A DNA stretch of 64,000 bases from Octopus sinensis (taxonomy: Eukaryota): the NCBI RefSeq assembly GCF_006345805.1, contig NC_042999.1:147374001-147438000 (forward strand), in the 5' to 3' direction. Under the pieces are notes generated by a model. That model had not been told where the DNA came from. It did not search any database and saw only the letters and a program-made list of their open reading frames with translations. Shown in pieces: positions 4,233-56,441 of the stretch. The position numbers and the translations under genes were made by a program. How positions within the stretch are numbered: the stretch's first letter is position 1; each line of letters opens with the position of its first letter.

Positions 4233-6179
4233 TAGATAGATAGATAGATAGATTGATTGATAGATAGATAGACCAGTCAAAAAGTTGGTTAATCTACAGC
4301 TTCACCTAGATCTCAGTGGATCAAGCAATGGGTGTAGACATACAACTCCGACGATACTTTGAAGGTAGAACACCTACCATTGAGTGTGTCTACTGAATTT
4401 ACTAGATTTGCCTGACGTGTAGTATTTACGAGGATAACTGACTATCAAATGACATATGAACCCACCGATATACACATATTTACACATGCACAAACATTTA
4501 CAAGCATTAAAAGATAAAAACGGGAAAATAGAAGAAATATCATAAAAATTAGAAGCCGAAATCTTCGAATTGTCCACAATTAAATTAAGTAACAGTTTTG
4601 TAAGCTACTGTCTACAAAGTAATACCTAAATCACCTGTATTATTCTTTGCGGGAGAAGATTTAGAAATAAAACGGGAGCATTCACTGGATTTATTTTATT
4701 GTAGGTAATTTAATTTTTAACAGAACTTTTGAATCAATTTTCACTTTCCAGATAAATTATAAATAATTACACAAGTCGTTTATGTCTTTCATCCTTTCGT
4801 GGTCGCTAAAATACAATACCAGTCACGTACCGGGTTCATTGTAATAGAGTAATCCGGCCCCACTGAAATTGCTGGCCTTGTACCAAAATTTGAAACCAAT
4901 ATAAATTATAAATAGCTACACTAATTTTTCGATTTATAAATCTTTCAGTTAATATACTGCATTTCTCTATGTGAACATTGTTTAGTAACTATTTGAAGAC
5001 AAGAAAATACATGCTATACAAATTATGATCTTTCTGTTACAATGTAAAATATTACATGTTTAAGATATCTATCTTTGTAATAAATACACAATCGGTGTGT
5101 TTCTTTCTTAATAACAACATATCACTACATATTTAATGATATTTATTGTAACAGAGTGTAGTAGTTGCTTCATGAGAGAGAAATATCTAAAGAATATACA
5201 TTCACTAACAATAGTACAAGAACGACTATATAGATGTGTACATAACATCGAAAATTATGTTCTCAAGAACTTTCAATTAAATGTTTTAGAGAAATGAGTT
5301 TCCTAGAATTTAAGCCAATCAGTTATCTGAGAATTAATCGCCGTTATCTCTGTAAAGTTTAATTAAATTTTCCTTTCCGAAAATGTTATTCTTTCTTTCC
5401 CTTCAGAATCAAGACTATGATTTTGAAACTCACGAGATTTCAAAACATGTTTCTGGTTCTTCTGAAAATGAAAGAATTTTACAATTACTATTAAATTTCA
5501 TTCACCGACGTACATTATCGATAGTTTCATCCGATTTTAGATTTGTAATGTTTTCTTTTTAAATTCTTTTTAACCCTTTCTAATCAAAGTTCATCAAATT
5601 GAGCCATAAAACAACCTCTATGCTGCCACATGACATGCTACAATTCGTAGACACATTATTAACAGATTTTACTCCGCTGTTTTAGATATGCCTTAACTCT
5701 AGATCAGCTTCACTAGATCTCATCTGGAAATGCATAACAAGAAAAATCAACAAAACAACATTAGGCCCATAGTTAGTTTTCTAACAAATCTTAATATCTA
5801 GTTTCCTTGACTGAGGAAACTTAACTTTCCGTTCTGAGTTCAAGTTTCGAAAGGTTAACAGTTTTCCTTTCGGATCTATCAAATGAGTGACAGTTGAGCA
5901 TTTAGTGGGGTGGTCGATGTAATCAACTTAACCCCTCTGACGAAGTTGCTGACCATGTGACAAAATTTGAAATTGATATTTATTATTCTTGATTACAATA
6001 GAATTAGACTTTTAGAAGTGTTAACAAAAGGTATGAACGTTTGGGTGGATAGCGTGATGGCTGAACAGATGGACAGGTGGATGCATGCATGGATGGAAGT
6101 GTCAGTCCATGCGTTAATAGAGGGAACGGGTGACTGTATATGTGTGTGCATGTACAATGCAAATGATATATATATATAT

Positions 6180-25100: not shown

Positions 25101-25324
25101 AGACTAATTTAAACATTTCTATTGTTCTTTTTCGGCCATTGTCCGTGCAACATCTATATTCCTCCGTGTGCTCGTGAAATCCTGTATCCCTGCCGTAAGG
25201 CTTTATTTCCACACACGTCAGCTTAATTTAATTCGTCCTTAGTCGAAAGCCACCTGTTGTTATATCCTGTTATATGTAGTTGTGTAACTTTCTCCGTTAT
25301 TTTTTCTGTCCTTGTTTTCGTATA

Positions 25325-25470
25325 CATTTGCTACTCTCTTCCAAGGAATCTAATGCACTTATTTTAGTTTTTCCTTGGGGCTGGCTAGATTTGGAGCAAT
25401 CTCGAGTAATACCAACCGAAATTGCATAGTTAATCTGGAACTTGACTGAGGAAAGAAAACTCCGAATGCC
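25325..25470 (+). ncRNA. Candidate non-circularly permuted hammerhead ribozyme, copy A (diverged)
   Basis: GGCTGG..GCAAT-C-TCGAGT-aata-CCAACC-GAA-ATTGC..ACTTGA-CTGAGGA; covaries with copies B and C. Confidence 0.6.
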
Positions 25471-25576
25471 CTGTCTTTCTTTTGTTTGTATCGTCTATCT
25501 GAATGTTTTTGTTGTCCTTTTTTTGTATCACCTAACTGCCTAGATGTTTTGCGTTCTTGTCCCATTTTGCATTATA

Positions 25577-28717: not shown

Positions 28718-29579
28718 CCATGCCTTATTCATTCTGTCAGGTAATAACGTCATAATATTTTATCTAATATTTAATTAAATTGAAAACTATTTTCATTGAA
28801 TTCTTGAGAGTAAAAGAAAGAAAATTTATCTCTGATTAAGATTAAAAAAAAAGAAAAGGGTGTAAAGTTTTGAAGTAAAGTTCATCGCTTAGTATCATTA
28901 AAACATCAGATAGCCAGAAGCTAGCATAGATTTGAAGTAAGTTGAGCATATGTGTAATCTTAAATGCTTTTGTAAATAAGCATGTGAGTCTACTCGTTCA
29001 CATGTGTGTTTAAGTGTGCATCGATGTTGTGTTTCTTTTTATATATTTGTGTGAGTATAGACAGAGAGTGTAAAGAAATATGTTGTACTGATGAATGATA
29101 ATAGTGTTTTAATTACTACAGAATCCTGTCTGCATTCACCTAATTATAATTTCTTTTTTCAAAAATAGATAGCACACACCACTTTAGAGACTTGGCTGTA
29201 TTGTGAATGAAATAGCTTTAACAAACGAAGTAGTTCATAAACAAATTGGAATAATATGAAATTATATGGATTCATAGTTTAGACACAGGTTTCGAATAGG
29301 AAAAGTGATGCATATGTAATTTTCTAATATAAAAGAGACTTGAAATTTATCAAAAAATGAGCCTGGGCTTGTGAACAAACCAATTAAATCTATAATACGC
29401 AAACTGAAAATGTGGAAAATTCTAGCAAACTATTGGCTACCAATTATCGAAATAATCTATGCAAAGCCGTTGCTTCCTTTCTTTCTTCCCTTCCACAATA
29501 GCTTTCTATAGACCACAATTTTATCTCCTCACAATTTCACTTCAATTGGACATCTTGCACCTGCGATAAAGATTGTGTG

Positions 29580-29616
<37 letters not shown>

Positions 29617-30859
29617 ATATGTGTGTATATATAGAAATACTGAAAGAACTCAAGAAAATCAACACAAATTTGTCAACTTTTTTGAACAAATTCGATTCGA
29701 CACTTCAACCCAATCGAGAGAACAAAAGAAGAAACAGATACGAAAAATACAACCTCCGAAATTGTCGTAAACCTTGGAAACTTATGCGAAACAATAGAAC
29801 ATTTTTCTCTAACAACGCTAACCAAGGACCTCAAACGCGTCAATATATGGGATCAATACTCTAACAACATACCAAATGAAACACACATAATACCACAATG
29901 GAACAAATCACTCAGAGATAGAAAGTTCGCCTTTTGGAAGATGATCCAAAACAACAAACAAAGCGGATATATACGAAAAATGGCTCAACCGGACCCCGTT
30001 AATCCTCCCACGTAAATTCCAGTTCAAAGCTATTACAGAAGAACCTGAAACAAAGACACCTCAGGGAGAGAATGGCACTGGAAAAAATGAAAATGGAAAT
30101 AGAACTTCTGAAATTGAGGGCCCAAACGAATGAGGATAATAAATAAAATCCACCGATGAAGATATCAACGAAGAAATTCGCAAAATGACCCAAGGCCCAG
30201 ATCAAGAGAAGTTCTCCAAACTATGGAAAGAGGACTGTGAAAAAGAAGAACTAAAATCTCTCCAACGCTGGGAGAAAAGCGCCACTTGGTTCTCAGACTA
30301 TGAAGCCGTCTTTCAAACAGAGCACGCCTCCAACAACCCTTTCCAGAAAATAAGAAAACCAAACAACACCCAAACACCGATACACACCTGTCTAAAAATC
30401 GGAACCTTCACTACTATCAAAAAAAGAATACAGGACCTAACCCTACTCTGTAAGCAGCCAGCGATACAATATCAGGAATACCCCCACTTCAAGCAGAGAA
30501 AGGATAAATCAACACCCACAGCATAGACACTGCAACCTCATCCCCACCCAAAGGAGTTACCAACGAAATCTTCGTCCCATTAACCGGTTAAACAACCATG
30601 CACAACAAACCCACACCACTTGCAATGATTACCAACGAAGGCCTCCTAGAACCAACACCCGAATATAGGATATCGGGATGCTCTCCTCAATACTGCTCCA
30701 AGAACACACACCATAAATCACAACAGGGACCCCTAATCAACAAAGAACAACTATATACTAGCTACCGTCCCAACACCGCATTCATTTTTTAGACCCAATA
30801 CGCAAACACAGAGACACAAGATAGCACCAAACAAGCAGGAGAAACAAAAAGTAAAAAAA

Positions 30860-33070
30860 TTATTAATCTAACTCACAAGGAACTAACAGCAAACCAAATA
30901 AACATACTTTCCAAAGGACTCAAGTTTACACCCACCCCACAACACCCCAACTACAATGAAATGAAAGAAGACATCGCAGAATTCTGCAGAAAATTAAGAC
31001 TTACTGAGGAGCTATACGATAAATACAACGAGGACGAATCGTTAGCCAGAAATAGGAGTAACTACACCCCTCGAAAGGTAAGAATATAAAACCTTGATGA
31101 TTTCTGTGACCACATATCAAATTACCCATATCAACATATGCACAAACAAAAACACAAACCAAACTTCAGCAAAAAGAATGGGCCGAGTTGAACAAATTAA
31201 AACTAGATAAAACAATAACAATCAAAGAGGCCGATAAAGGGAGTGCTGTTGTCTTAATGGATACGACATTTTACATAACTTTGGTACTTTCTATGCTGGA
31301 AGACACAACATACTATGAAAAGGCACAAAACTACAGTCAACAAAAAATAATGAGGGAACTAAAATCCATATTAAACCCATACAAAGCAGGGCTCACCGAC
31401 AAAGAATATGATTATATGACCAATTTCACAAGTAAAACTAGCCAATTCTACGGTATACCTAAGATCCACAAAAAATGAAAAATAAGCAACGAATGCAAGA
31501 TAGCTACAGACAAAATAATTAAAGTCCCTAATCCTAATGACCTCAAATTGAGACCCATAATAGCAGGTCCCGCATGCGAAACCCACCGCCTCAGTAACTT
31601 TTTAGACACCCTGTTAAAACCACTCCTCAAACATGTCAAAAGCTATATAGGGGACGACTTAGATATGCTCAATCACCTACCGAATACTATAAACAAAAAC
31701 ACCATACTGGTATCCTTCGATGTAGTCAACCTCTACTCCAATATCCCCCACAACTAGGACTAGAGGCAATCCAATTCTGGCTAGAGAATCACGCCAACGA
31801 AACTACCACACCGCATCAAAAGAATTTTGATAGAAGGGGTTAAATTCATCCTGGAAAATAACTTCTTCGCCTTCAATGACAACTTCTACCGAAAAAATCG
31901 GGGACTGCCATGGGTACACGAATGGCCCCCTCCTTTGCCAACCTAGTCATATGATACCTAGAGATCAGTCTGTATCGTAAGGTTCTAGAAAGATATGGCA
32001 GCCCTTTCTCCATCTACATAGAAAACAACTGGAAGAGATATCTAGATGACTGTTTCATCCTTTGGCATAAAAATATAGAAAAACTCATAGAATTCAGAAA
32101 AATTTTAAACGGACTGGACGTAAACATCCAATTCACGATGGAATATAGCCAACAACAACTCCCCTCCTCGATATCCTCATTAAGAAAGCTAATAATATAA
32201 TAGAAACAGACATATACTATAAGCCTACAGACTCTAAGCAATATCTTCCATTCAATTCATGCCACCCCAGACACACCAGGATGAATATCCCCTTCAATCT
32301 AGCAAAAAGGATATGCACTATAGTCTCTAACGCAAACACCAGAGACACACGACTACAAGAACTAAAAGACACCCTAATCACCAGGAACTATCCACCTTCA
32401 CTTATTGACAAGTGCATTCAACGTGCCCTTCAACTTAACATCAAGGAACTGAGACATCCCAAATCCAAGAAAAACTTACAACCAAAAGCCTTACCATACA
32501 TCTCCACAAACAACCCTCTCAATAACGAAGCCTTCGACACCATCCTCCACAACATACCCCTCCTAAAAAAAGACCACAGAATGAACACAATCCTCCAAAC
32601 ACACACAATCATAAAAAGCAAAAGACAGCCTAGATCCATGAAAAGTCTCCTTACACAAGCCCGAATTCACTCTTCAACACAGAAGCCGACAGTAAAAAAA
32701 TGTGGAAGACCCAATTGCGGGATATGCGACTATCTTATTGAGGGATCAGAGTTCTCCTTCAAACAGGGACAACGGTTTACAGTGAAAAGCAACTTCACAT
32801 GTGCTTCGGAGAACCTAATATACTCACTAACCTGCTCCGGGTGTCAAGAGCAGTACATAGGCCAAACAGAAAATGTTTGCGTAAACGAATGGCCCTGCAC
32901 AGATCCCAGATAAAAATTCCCCAAAACAGAAAAATAGCTTTTAGCCAACACATAGATACTTGCGCCAACAAAAAAACACCAAACTTCAGAATTTTCCCCC
33001 TCTACCAATTTAGGGACGATACAACCTCGAGACAACGAATAAGTAAAGAAAATCTCTTTATACAAAATAC
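30860..33070 (+). pseudogene. PLE reverse transcriptase plus GIY-YIG endonuclease, frameshifted
   Basis: KGLKFTPTP, IKEADKGSAVVLMD, FYGIPKIHK, RPIIAGP, SFDVVNLYSNIPH, GTAMGTRMAPSFANL, RYLDDCF, YYKPTDSKQYL, CGRPNCGIC, NLIYSLTC..YIGQT. Confidence 0.95.
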
Positions 33071-33746
33071 AAGCCACTTCTTAACGGGTCTACGACAAAC
33101 AATTAATATACTTCAACTTTAGAATAAAAGAAAAATATATATACACACACAAATATTACACTCCATAGAATCCATTACTAATCAGCCCCTTCATAGCTAT
33201 ATTTACACCCATTCATATTCTCCCTTCTCTGTTTTTTTTTCTCCTCCTCCTTCTTCTTCTTCTTCTTCATCATCATCATTATCATCATCATCGTCGTCAT
33301 AATCATCACCACCATCACCATCATCGTCATCTTCTCCTTCTCCTTCTCCTTCTCCTTCTTCTTCTTCTTCTTCTCTTCTTCTTCTACTTCTCCACCCCCT
33401 ACCTCTTAACTTTGTCACTAATGTTTTTTAGTATAACACCTACGCTAATTCTATAAACAAGCCTGTCAATATAAATATTCTCCTGAATTGAACTGAGACT
33501 GCCAGCCGCCACTGACCATTCAAAATACGACCATCAGGGCACTCCCAGATTCTCCCACCCCCCTTTCCTCACCAGCCCTCTTCCTCTACTACCCTACCAA
33601 GAACTCACAACGACCTCAAACACACAAGTGCAAACAAGGGAGTCAGAGAAAGGCAGAATGCCACTTATATCTGAACACTACTATAGAAATATTCCTTTAA
33701 AAAAACTTTTCTTCTAATTTTCCTAAATTTAATTATTTAATCGTTA

Positions 33747-33784
33747 CAGTTGAAAAGGTCTCAAAATGACCGAAACCGGTACTG
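33747..33784 (+). ncRNA. Minimal hammerhead ribozyme, U3-A8 variant, at PLE 3' end
   Basis: CAG-TTGAAAA-GGTC-tcaaaat-GACC-GAA-ACCGGT-A-CTG; all helices intact. Confidence 0.85.
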
Positions 33785-33833
33785 AAATGTTCACTATAAA
33801 ATTATTTTAGCATTTTCTATTTTTGACTTGTTT

Positions 33834-33874
<41 letters not shown>

Positions 33875-34793: not shown

Positions 34794-34980
34794 TAGTGTA
34801 TAAGTATGAGACACACACATGTGATTTCGGTACGTATTAAACTACGTAATTATGCATTGTCTCAGTGATCCCACTGACGAAGTACGGTTGATATATATAT
34901 ATATATTAAGGTATGTAGAAAAATACAACATGGACAAGAACGTATAACTCATAGAAGACGATACAATAAACATGGACAGG

Positions 34981-35124
34981 ACATTCGAACCCCTCAGTCT
35001 TCAGTCAAGAACCGGATCATCGTAGTAATTTCGGCTGATTAATCTTGAGATTACTAGATCACGGCCAACCCTCCAAGAAAAACTAAGCTGGAAGCGTAGA
35101 TTTCCTGGAAGAAGGATCGAATGC
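34981..35124 (-). ncRNA. Candidate permuted hammerhead, copy B
   Basis: As copy C, with helix II strand GGTTGG (G-U tolerated). Confidence 0.65.
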
Positions 35125-35742
35125 ATACGAACACCAGGACAGCAAAAGGGACAGATATAAAAAAAAACAAAAAACAATAATGGAATACAGAAACATGAAA
35201 TACAGAAGCATTAACGGTGAAAACAACAAGTGTCTTACGACTGATAACAAGCAAACAAATTTTTTCTCTGGCGCATTGGAAAAAGCCTTTATAGCGGCGG
35301 ACGAAGAACAACGATGTTAACACGACGAGGGTCAGGAGCTGAAAGGCAGATTTCGGCCAACAGTCACGTGACAGAGAAGAGAGAGAGAGAAAAGGGGGGA
35401 CAAAACGCAACAAAGAGAGAGAAGAGAGAGAAAGAAGGAATCAGAGAGGAGAAGGGATGGGTGTCGAAGAATGACCTGTGAGTGCAGAGCGAGACAAAGA
35501 AATAGGAGGGTAGTGGAAGACTAGACCAAAGGATCAGAGGAAAGAGAAGATGAATAGAGAGAAAGTAAAAATGAGAGAGAGAGAGAGACAAACAGAGAGT
35601 CGTACCAATTATTAAGAATATGTGTTCACATTAATGATAAAGGGGGTACGGGCGCCTGGAATATATGTTAAGGTATGTAGAAAAATACAACATGGACAAG
35701 AACGTATAACTCATAGAAGACGATACAATAAACATGGACAGG

Positions 35743-35886
35743 ACATTCGAACCCCTCAGTCTTCAGTCAAGAACCGGATCATCGTAGTAATTTCGGCTGA
35801 TTAATCTTGAGATTACTAGATCACGGCCAGCCCTCCAAGAAAAACTAAGCTGGAAGCGTAGATTTCCTGGAAGAAGGATCGAATGC
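35743..35886 (-). ncRNA. Candidate permuted hammerhead, copy C
   Basis: GGCTGG-ccgtgatc-TAGTAAT-C-TCAAGA-ttaa-TCAGCC-GAA-ATTACTA-cgat-gatccgg-t-TCTTGA-CTGAAGA. Confidence 0.65.
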
Positions 35887-35900
35887 ATACGAACACCAGG

Positions 35901-35961
<61 letters not shown>

Positions 35962-36689: not shown

Positions 36690-37500
36690 GTTACATATCT
36701 TAGAACTCCATAAAGTCTCCATCGGTTGTCACATTTTACGGCTTTTTCCGCATCTCTATCCCTTTGTTGCATCAGATACTTGGTTCATATTTCCTGTTCC
36801 TTGATTGCAAACGCATACCCTTCAAAGTGGGAGGAAGTAATTTGGGTATTCGTCCATGGTAAACTGCTTTGATGATCGATGTTACTATCGTCACAGAGCT
36901 TTCTACTAACATATCCATGCATAGTCTTCTGCTAATATAGTCTCATCCTCTCATCTGATGCTACGTTGCAGTAGAGTCGTGCAACATTTTTGCGCATGTA
37001 TTCCAGGTTATGAGACAAATACTGTCGCTCAAGGAGCTGCCTTCCAAGTCTTATGATGTTATCAGCCTCATGTATGCAAACTTGGTCAAAGGTTGCATTT
37101 CGAAGCTTGGTGGTTAAAAGATGTTGCTGAATGGGTATGATGCGACATTCAAAAGCATTTTGGATCGATGGTAAGCCTCTGCAGCCTTGTATGAATTTTA
37201 AGTTGATGCGGTCTACATTACTGTTTATGTGGAAATTATGTGTACTTGTTAGTATTTTTCGGGTTTTCACATCAATTGCTCAGATCTCAATCAAACAACC
37301 CAAATACTAGCACTGCAAAGGCATTTCGCGCCACTATTTTATTGAATGCAGAGAGTTCTAAGGTCCAACTTCTCTCTATTCGGCTGTAATATTCTTTAGT
37401 GACACGCATTTTTTTACAGGTGCCATTGTAAAATATATATTTATCCACATCTAGTTACCTGTAACATACTTCGTCATATACAGGGGAAACTGTCAAATCA
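36690..37500 (-). mobile_element. R4/Dong-type (restriction-like endonuclease) LINE fragment
   Basis: KTRKILTSTHNFHINSNVDR..GCRGL, MHGY and SSHFEGYAFAIKEQEI motifs. Confidence 0.75.
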
Positions 37501-38879: not shown

Positions 38880-41035
<2,156 letters not shown>

Positions 41036-42074: not shown

Positions 42075-42473
42075 TATTAGGGAATAAATCCAAATTTACA
42101 GGGAAAAAAAATCAGATTAGGATTAAATCCAATTTTATAGTAAAATTATAAATATTATTAGAGACAAAACCACTATTTTGAAAAACAAACAAGGAAAGAC
42201 TTAATCAATACATAAAATTTAATAAATAGTCAAAAAAACCGCCACTACAATCGTTCTTGTCTTGATCGACAATCTTCAGGTGGACTTCCATTACAAGTCA
42301 GTTTCAAATTTGAAACTGACTTGTAAATTGGAAGTCCACCTGAAGATTGTCGATCAAGACAAGAAACGATTGTAGGCGGTTTTTTTTTTTTTGACTATTT
42401 ATAAAATTTTATGTATTGATTAAGTCTTTCCTTGTTTGTTTTGCAAAATAGTGGTTTTGTCTCTAATAATATT
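42075..42473. mobile_element. PLE end forming a spacerless ~320-bp palindrome plus 75-bp tail
   Basis: Arms 42151-42308 / 42309-42473, (TA)n on both sides, one HHR per arm. Confidence 0.85.
42336..42378 (+). ncRNA. Minimal hammerhead ribozyme (mirror copy at 42242-42283, minus strand)
   Basis: Two-arm consensus CCAC-CTGAAGA-TTGTC-gatcaa-GACAA-GAA-ACGATTGT-A-GTGG; each arm carries a different small deletion. Confidence 0.78.
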
Positions 42474-47592: not shown

Positions 47593-47595
<3 letters not shown>

Positions 47596-47932
47596 CTAAG
47601 CAATAAAGGGTTTAGCAACGAATTGCCTTACCACATACCGAATTTAGAAATAGCAGTCAAAAGGTTATAGCTATTTCTTCTACTAAAAAGGGAGATCTCA
47701 GTAAAAACAGCAATTGTTTTTACTGAGATCTCCCTTTTTAGTAGAAGAAATAGCTATAACCTTTTGACTGCTATTTCTAAATTCGGTATGTGGTAAGGCA
47801 ATTCGTTGCTAAACCCTTTATTGCTTAGTATTACTTAAATTTTCCTCGAATGAGGCTTTTACATGCCGAAGACTACTTGGTGTAATTGATAATTATTCCA
47901 AATTAATTAATTTCACCCTTCATTATTACGGA

Positions 47933-55523: not shown

Positions 55524-56064
<541 letters not shown>

Positions 56065-56441
56065 TATGGATGAGAGGGAGTATGGAGGGATGATCTATCC
56101 GGGCGGATACCGCATTTGCCCTCAGTTAAGTTCCAGTTAACGGCTAACAACAACGATCCTTACCTAACGTCTATATATTTATTCTTCCGAAGGGTAATTC
56201 TGTGTACTGTTCGCTGGACGGTAAAACTTGTCTGTAATGTATAATACGATCAGACCTTCAAGAGATATATACATAATTCAAGATAGGCAACGCTCCAGCA
56301 ATATTTGAGCTTGATATAACAAATAAATAAAATAACCTAAACATAAAAATATTTAATAACATCATTAATAAAAACAAAACAAATACCTTACCCAATATAT
56401 AACACAAATCATGATCAGCCCAGGCAAAAAATGAATTTATA

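Follow-up and report, generated by a model that had tools for sequence, protein, structure and literature searches.

A predicted hammerhead ribozyme with a split core strand in animal retrotransposons

In the permutation scheme for hammerhead ribozymes, blocks C, G and S are assumed to be uninterruptible, and a rearranged type, SGC, has been validated (Eckert et al. 2023, PMC10085705, HRIMA-1). As described in that report, SGC ribozymes have a helix I-to-II link of about 3 nt and a fourth helix that joins the other sides; they cleave in vitro, efficiently during transcription when isolated, and they are recorded there only from metatranscriptomes, with none in the genomes of known organisms (PMC10085705). 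Only short core insertions are described for hammerheads in the account given in PMC3088659. The subject of this study is an RNA element in a 64,000-nt stretch of Octopus sinensis DNA (NC_042999.1, positions 147,374,001 to 147,438,000; "the window" denotes this whole stretch), where it occurs as copies B1, B2 and A. Its strands can be read as those of a hammerhead in the cyclic order of type SGC, with the core strand split between A9 and G10.1.

Two described groups of retrotransposons proved relevant to this split-core RNA. Naiads, which are Penelope-like elements (PLEs), target (TA)n and are described as lacking canonical hammerheads, and 18 Naiad entries carry "core" or "half-core" words for which the published description offers no explanation (Craig et al. 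2021, PMC8557442). The restriction-like endonuclease (RLE) clade of non-LTR (long terminal repeat) retrotransposons has been described in PMC4640811. Altogether, the data presented here indicate, with a probability of about 0.75, that the split-core RNA is an SGC-order hammerhead reopened between A9 and G10.1, likely folding in one molecule, with a predicted cut after C17 that likely marks the unit boundary of the transcript.

Strand order and copies in the window

The strands of the split-core RNA follow one another in the order P0, P4, II5', X5', III3'-NUH-I3', a linker of 1-7 nt, II3'-GAAA-III5', X3', I5'-CUGANGA and again P0. The initial annotation of the window had proposed a non-circularly permuted hammerhead broken between A9 and G10.1, and this proposal is supported by covariation across unrelated families, as set out below. 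All of the hammerhead strands that it named for B1, B2 and copy A were found where it had placed them, and the compensatory helix changes it listed for copy A were confirmed, although helix II of copy A also has a private C-A mismatch. What it called an extension of helix III does pair, but it is actually a sixth, separate helix (X), which in subfamily B (B1 and B2) is joined to helix III via a 4-nt bulge at the place where relatives carry a kink-turn consensus. B1 and B2 lie 762 nt apart and are 99.2% identical over 243 nt, and copy A is 70.9% identical to the B copies. A descriptor consisting of the reversed strand order plus the upstream helix II strand matched B1 and B2 and no other site in the window; copy A fails it because of the one helix II mismatch. 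With a stricter descriptor (helix I of at least 6, III of at least 5 and II of at least 6), 0 matches were obtained in 60 Markov-simulated 64-kb windows on both strands.

The RNA is carried by a tandem, non-coding retroelement of 760-800 nt inserted in (TA)n. The initial annotation had counted three copies; the three in the window are real, but the RNA is a far more widespread, conserved retrotransposon element, and a 73-nt core had 747 exact matches in genome G000 (2.72 Gb) and 0 in the reversed control. Arrays of subfamily B carry one to four of the predicted ribozymes (30 B loci, some of which overlap the same array); the 3' end is fixed and followed by (TA)n in 23 of the 26 loci with the end in view, and the 5' ends vary. 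Judged from its sequence, subfamily B is thus a 3'-anchored, 5'-truncated retroposed repeat. It is the youngest subfamily, and the older subfamilies A and C have the same layout. The B unit holds no open reading frame (ORF) of note, the insert is unbroken across the predicted cut site in 66 of 72 B copies, and the internal unit junction is TA-like, which would permit priming there.

Recurrence in unrelated families and retrotransposon classes

An unrelated family, D, was found by the descriptor in a flank. A pattern of core words, with no pairing term and with the first helix I pair of the known families excluded, gave 212 matches in G000 versus 136 in the reversed control; the 100 matches listed included additional families, four of which (F, G, H and M) were taken further. 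Alignments comprised 35 rows for A, 23 for B, 31 for C, 30 for D, 25 for F, 20 for G and 20 for H, and family M (6 rows) was excluded from the counts. Within the seven G000 family alignments the six helices pair in 80-100% of cells, which is so by construction because the helices were chosen on each family's majority letters. Across the families, pair types differ nearly everywhere, while CUGANGA, GAAA, U16.1-A15.1 and G10.1-C11.1 are unchanged. With genomic copies collected and aligned, the six helices therefore covary across families, and the core words (CUGANGA, GAAA and NUH in all seven) are kept while the helix sequences differ; G17 was never seen at NUH, a position left unconstrained. 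The linkers of the A9/P0/P4/G10.1 junction measure 0/0/0 in A, D, F, G and H, 1/1/0 in C and 2/1/1 in B, and a helix II contiguous with CUGANGA would have 0 bp in six of these families and 1 bp in one. A kink-turn consensus (a 3-nt bulge, then tandem G-A and A-G) is present in A, C and F and absent in B, D, G and H. Among viral contigs, 0 of 39 core-word matches passed the descriptor, and a second pattern gave 6 matches, none with the helices when inspected by eye.

Outside these counts, further G000 families with the same layout (E, I and M) were seen at L179, L182, L197-L199, L195-L196 and L275-L280. A repeat family at L166:1400-1600 and L209:900-1100 has reversed-order GAAAC...CUGAUGA and is not parsable as the split-core architecture.

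Family G sits behind broken frames that resemble a restriction-like endonuclease end. A profile of seven such frames gave 590 protein matches, with named members from Clupea, Nerophis and Mytilus; PF00078 was matched by four of six tested RLE-type proteins, reverse transcriptase (RT) and zf-RVT domains were identified by Pfam, and RLE-like motifs were visible in the alignment. From these protein motifs (RT, a zinc knuckle and an RPD...ELTVPWE...K C-terminus), we take the elements to be HERO-like. No RLE protein relative turned up in the viral contigs, a protein search by words that used one decayed frame gave no match, and a structure search matched no solved structure.

The best 80 of 201 RT-RLE loci from metagenome contigs were then considered. 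The descriptor is passed by 39 of the 80, on the sense strand and 94-257 nt 3' of the ORF match, and none of the 80 has a match upstream of the ORF or antisense. The 38 loci with an upstream II5' strand represent 28 lineages, 27 of them with enough flank for P0/P4. A linker-free P0/P4 junction, a feature outside the descriptor, is present in 25 of these 27, compared with a mean of 1.9 and a maximum of 6 in 200 shuffles of the flanks and with 4-9 in shifted registers; a contiguous helix II would have 0 bp in 25 of the 27 lineages and 2 bp in two. In a plain MAFFT alignment 93.2% of cells pair, a level that 0 of 500 shuffles reached; shuffled controls gave 67.1% and slid controls 28-46%. Both sides vary in 19 of 21 pairs, including all 8 unselected P0/P4 pairs. 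The upstream II5' strand likewise covaries with II3'. With the positions of the tertiary 3-8 pair left free, 43 of the 80 loci pass, carrying C-G in 38, U-A in 2, U-G in 2 and C-U in 1; U3-A8 is a known hammerhead covariation as described in PMC4209133. Between III and X, 20 of 28 lineages carry the kink-turn consensus (24 in relaxed form), and the distance from G10.1 to U16.1 is 19-21 nt in 27 of 28. The protein of locus L310 is 97.7% identical to a herring protein, and that of L338 is 97.5% identical to a mussel protein. Moreover, the N-terminus of the ORF restarts 3' of the RNA in 11 of 42 loci, one of them weakly, which places the RNA at unit boundaries; a collapsed assembly of terminal repeats would mimic this.

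Family F leads to the Naiads. The 3' ends of the published Naiad_Obim and Naiad_Ovul consensus sequences read as family F by eye (PMC8557442 supplement), and F lay downstream in 23 of 30 G000 loci found by the sequence upstream of F. Of the 14 loci with RT-like frames, 9 have F about 1 kb further 3'; the frames match PF00078 at E 8.5e-4, a score that falls short of the curated cut-off. Family F accordingly has an RT-ending ORF upstream, a 3' end in (TA)n and a match to the consensus, all of which are Naiad traits. By eye, 6 of the 21 Naiad consensus ends in the part of the supplement considered fit the split-core architecture, namely Naiad_Obim, Naiad_Ovul, Naiad_Esco (helix II imperfect) and, named by entry order, Naiad-2_Movir, Naiad-3_Chem and Naiad-4_Dst. 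Ordinary-order hammerheads, mostly with a long helix II, are present in 5 of the 21 (four nematode entries and the entry before Naiad_Lpol), two ostracod entries could not be parsed, and 8 are without such a core. With six of 21 ends fitting, the split-core RNA accounts for part of the Naiad ribozyme gap, not all of it. The oyster and hemichordate consensus sequences share a different, GC-rich conserved 3' untranslated region (UTR) element with no hammerhead core, possibly another structured RNA.

Proposed fold and alternative explanations

The split-core RNA is predicted, with high confidence, to be a functional hammerhead, and it probably acts mainly as a monomer. In the proposed fold, P0 and P4 would be coaxially stacked and joined to the core through a four-way junction that has no linkers; this junction would keep A9 beside G10.1 without a covalent link, and the kink-turn or bulge would bend X back from III, clamping the far ends of helices I and II. 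Cuts in successive units would free a monomer, and a host ligase would circularise the unit-length RNA; a circular intermediate is fairly likely. Nicked (TA)n would prime the retrotransposon RT at a constant position, some 145 nt 3' of the cut, and synthesis would continue round the circle to yield inserts that exceed one unit. Ligation of unit RNA and copying round the circle have been proposed in the published accounts of retrozymes (PMC7229834; bioRxiv 10.64898/2026.07.22.740005). At slightly better than even odds, a joint reading would add the split-core RNA to the natural hammerheads as their fifth architecture, a closed cage whose broken core strand is held by the four-way junction and the kink-turn. 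This RNA would be common to Naiad PLEs, to long interspersed nuclear elements (LINEs) of the RLE clade in fish and molluscs, and to their non-coding parasites. It would be the missing ribozyme of many Naiads, and the RLE LINE clade would replicate via circular RNA produced by self-cleavage, with a kissing dimer as a possible gate.

However, it should be noted that several points weigh against the reopened SGC-order hammerhead as set out here. The minimum-energy fold of B1 forms P0, P4 and II, without I, III and X (z -1.9), and predicts a competing helix inside the II loop; the energy model excludes pseudoknots and crossing helices. In subfamily B, the window's own, the junction is the loosest of all and a strict kink-turn is lacking, and in D and H, III and X are separated by a symmetric 8x8 loop with AGUA/GAA words, presumably a bulged-G motif. 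In the metagenome set, 41 of the 80 loci fail the descriptor (the flank is shorter than 200 nt in 13 of the 80, and many other failures look decayed), the pairing of helices I-III is selected because the descriptor demanded them, and the alignment cells are not independent events because the lineages are related. The U3-A8 variant represents one lineage and one event, and position 17 is U in 16 of 28 lineages, U17 triplets being slower. Finally, if the RNA is not religated, cutting it upstream of where priming occurs carries a cost.

The three mutually crossing helices would also be resolved if the same core were built between two molecules or tandem units, with X and III forming a rod whose top loop (C17, I3', II3' and GAA) kisses the bottom multiloop (II5' and I5'-CUGANGA) of the other; cutting would then need a multimer. 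We consider such a kissing dimer unlikely as the general explanation. The symmetric loop of D and H, which lack an obvious kink, is hard to fit to a sharp intramolecular bend and favours a dimer in those families; the elements occur in tandem, dimeric action is documented for animal retroelement hammerheads in published accounts (PMC4209133, PMC7229834), and covariation does not separate cis from trans. Self-folding is better matched by the constant position of the kink-turn consensus (20 of 28 lineages and families A, C and F), by the tight length limits and by the efficient cleavage of isolated SGC ribozymes during transcription reported in PMC10085705.

Several features of the RNA could instead reflect a fold derived from a hammerhead that cleaves little or not at all and serves the retrotransposon protein as a 3' element for recognition or protection. 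RT-binding structures are expected near the 3' end of a retrotransposon, and the RNA lies 50-250 nt from that end; the inserts unbroken across the cut site and the frequent U17 fit as well. Nevertheless, every catalytic base is kept in two unrelated retrotransposon classes, whose unrelated proteins need not share 13 bases, and the absence of G17 at NUH in the G000 families together with the covarying 3-8 pair makes this explanation quite improbable. An ordinary SGC ribozyme, with helix II formed by the bases directly after CUGANGA and with P0 and P4 incidental, finds some footing in subfamily B, where pairing is possible between the CUGA that follows A9 and a UCAG two bases ahead of GAAA; it is already contradicted by the near-absence of a contiguous helix II (0-2 bp in the lineages, 0-1 bp in the seven families) and by the covariation of the upstream strand with II3', and hardly deserves credence. 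The probability that a chance resemblance was spread by transposition is negligible: copies inside a family are not independent, but neither the simulated windows nor the viral core-word matches gave a hit, the architecture recurs in unrelated families, and cross-family covariation refutes it.

The tandem element and its surroundings

Among the loci examined, no autonomous partner of A, B, C, D or H was found and no ORF was linked to A, B or C, and two PLE fragments upstream of the predicted ribozymes were antisense. Family H is also a closed non-coding unit. From its insertion pattern only, the helper of the window's subfamily is likely a Penelope-like element. Inverted partial copies adjoin the main copy at L035, L049, L050 and L246, as described for Penelope-like insertions. 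In the B unit, an CACGTGAC word and a TATA-like word (Table 1) form a possible internal promoter; the CACGTGAC word stands at a similar position in the units of A, B, C and H, which otherwise align poorly, and may be a shared promoter element. Assembled contigs were available from 20 sets in 8 studies, whose RNA nature was guessed; some of them lie on the B and C units, with no end or strand information, and one contig spans the B unit junction in two runs. One run shows read depth falling close to the cut site, but because subfamily divergence confounds this drop, it was not used as evidence.

The window also contains, at 29500-33836 (+), a broken Penelope-like element whose end is a decayed minimal hammerhead of ordinary order (about 33750-33782), followed by (TA)n. 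From motifs, we take its frames to be RT and GIY-YIG-like; they had no Pfam match. As an autonomous partner of A, B, C, D or H, this element was rejected, since it ends in an ordinary-order hammerhead remnant. Possible scraps of the split-core RNA suggested by the initial annotation at 56119-56141 and 5807-5820 gave no match at E<=1 with profiles of five family alignments and so lack support as copies; the motif at 5811-5870 (+) is an ordinary-order CUGANGA...CGAAA, as is one at about 1398-1330 (-), and both are probably remnants of other Penelope-like repeats. Other features are a perfect inverted repeat at 47593-47831 (117-nt arms, 5-nt spacing), an inverted repeat at 55581-55961 (97%), a hairpin at 42256-42359, and open frames at 36932-37279 (-) and 39612-40343 that resemble other non-LTR retrotransposon remnants, with no Pfam match for the two tested.

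Table 1. Positions of the split-core RNA, its parts and its carrier elements in the window
Feature	Position	Strand	Remark
Entire insertion of the subfamily B non-coding tandem retroelement (1.3 units; 762 nt per unit here)	34899..35903	-	(TA)n at both flanks
Predicted split-core hammerhead, copy B1 (P0, P4, II, X, III, I)	35744..35885	-
B1 helix P0	35885-35873 with 35757-35744	-
B1 P4 hairpin	35834..35871	-	immediately 5' of G10.1, with one unpaired base between in B
B1 helix II 5' strand	35827..35832	-	G10.1 = 35832; partner 35800-35795
B1 block S: helix III 3' strand, AUC triplet, helix I 3' strand	35805..35818	-
B1 C17	35811	-	predicted cut 35811/35810, from hammerhead consensus
B1 block G: helix II 3' strand, GAAA, helix III 5' strand	35785..35800	-
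B1 helix III	35818-35812 with 35791-35785	-	GAA 35794-35792
B1 helix I	35810-35805 with 35772-35767	-
B1 helix X	35826-35819 with 35780-35774 (span 35774..35826)	-	equivalent of SGC "interaction" helix
B1 helix I 5' strand and CUGAAGA (35766-35760)	35760..35772	-	then P0, where helix II would be expected
Predicted split-core hammerhead, copy B2	34982..35123	-	C17 35049
5'-truncated copy of subfamily A	25120..25572	+	ends in (TA)n; approximate ends
Predicted split-core hammerhead, copy A	25325..25470	+	C17 25401; helix II decayed
Copy A landmarks	II5' 25379, C17 25401, G12 25418, C3 25446	+
Possible promoter words	35286..35370	-	CACGTGAC word 35370-35363; TATA-like word 35293-35288

Relation to known hammerheads

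Rfam listed no hammerhead among 150 of 191 window matches at E<=5, and 0 matches were returned for 16 loci; the comparison with the published rearranged hammerhead gave the SGC order (PMC10085705). In the literature, of which subscription journals and the SGC supplement alignments are little covered, no split-core or four-way-junction hammerhead was described. The split-core RNA contradicts a stated assumption of the six-permutation scheme, and as a consequence descriptors and Rfam miss a predicted ribozyme with thousands of copies per genome. It places a non-circular permutation, until now drawn from metatranscriptomes and metagenomes, in animal genomes, and it offers a testable answer to the apparent absence of ribozymes in Naiads. 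The data suggest that ribozyme processing is common to unrelated retrotransposon classes. For engineering, the split marks a natural insertion point within the core for attaching helices.

Among retroelements, the non-LTR retrozymes (as described in PMC7229834 and bioRxiv 10.64898/2026.07.22.740005) share with the window element non-coding tandem units, one hammerhead in each, and a high copy number. They are also tied to Penelope-like elements, with self-cleavage, RtcB ligation and circular RNA as the model (PMC7229834); however, they carry type I hammerheads, which the window element does not, and are mostly shorter (PMC7229834). The minimal and canonical type I hammerheads of Penelope pLTRs, as described in PMC4209133, likewise lie near the 3' end before (TA)n, include the U3-A8 variant and possibly act as dimers, but they are circular permutations with a contiguous CUGANGA-helix II and at most 1 inserted base after A9. 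Naiads (in the account of PMC8557442) resemble the window element in (TA)n targets, 5' truncation, partial tandems and inverted 5' pieces, whereas the window subfamilies have no ORF and no detected sequence in common with family F. In the HERO-like RLE elements, family G and 39 metagenome loci carry the split-core RNA in the 3' UTR, and no description of a ribozyme was found in the literature for these elements.

Types I, II and III are nested three-way junctions; the split-core RNA has three mutually crossing helices. With type SGC, as far as it is described in PMC10085705, it shares the cyclic order S, G, C, the same core, and a fourth helix that pairs the strand following II5' with the strand preceding I5'. 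The I-to-II linker is typically 3 nt in SGC and 1-7 nt here, and block C (I5'-CUGANGA-II5'), continuous in SGC, is divided at A9/G10.1 and spanned by P0 and P4. In the split-core RNA the ends of SGC are joined, which turns X and III into a single kinked arm, and this RNA resides in animal retrotransposons, as opposed to metatranscriptomes. Filed as a hammerhead on its sequence, it therefore lies outside types I-III and outside SGC as defined. The initial annotation had proposed a new topology: the opening point between A9 and G10.1, the four-way junction and the closed III-X arm are new, but the strands follow the cyclic order already published for type SGC (PMC10085705).
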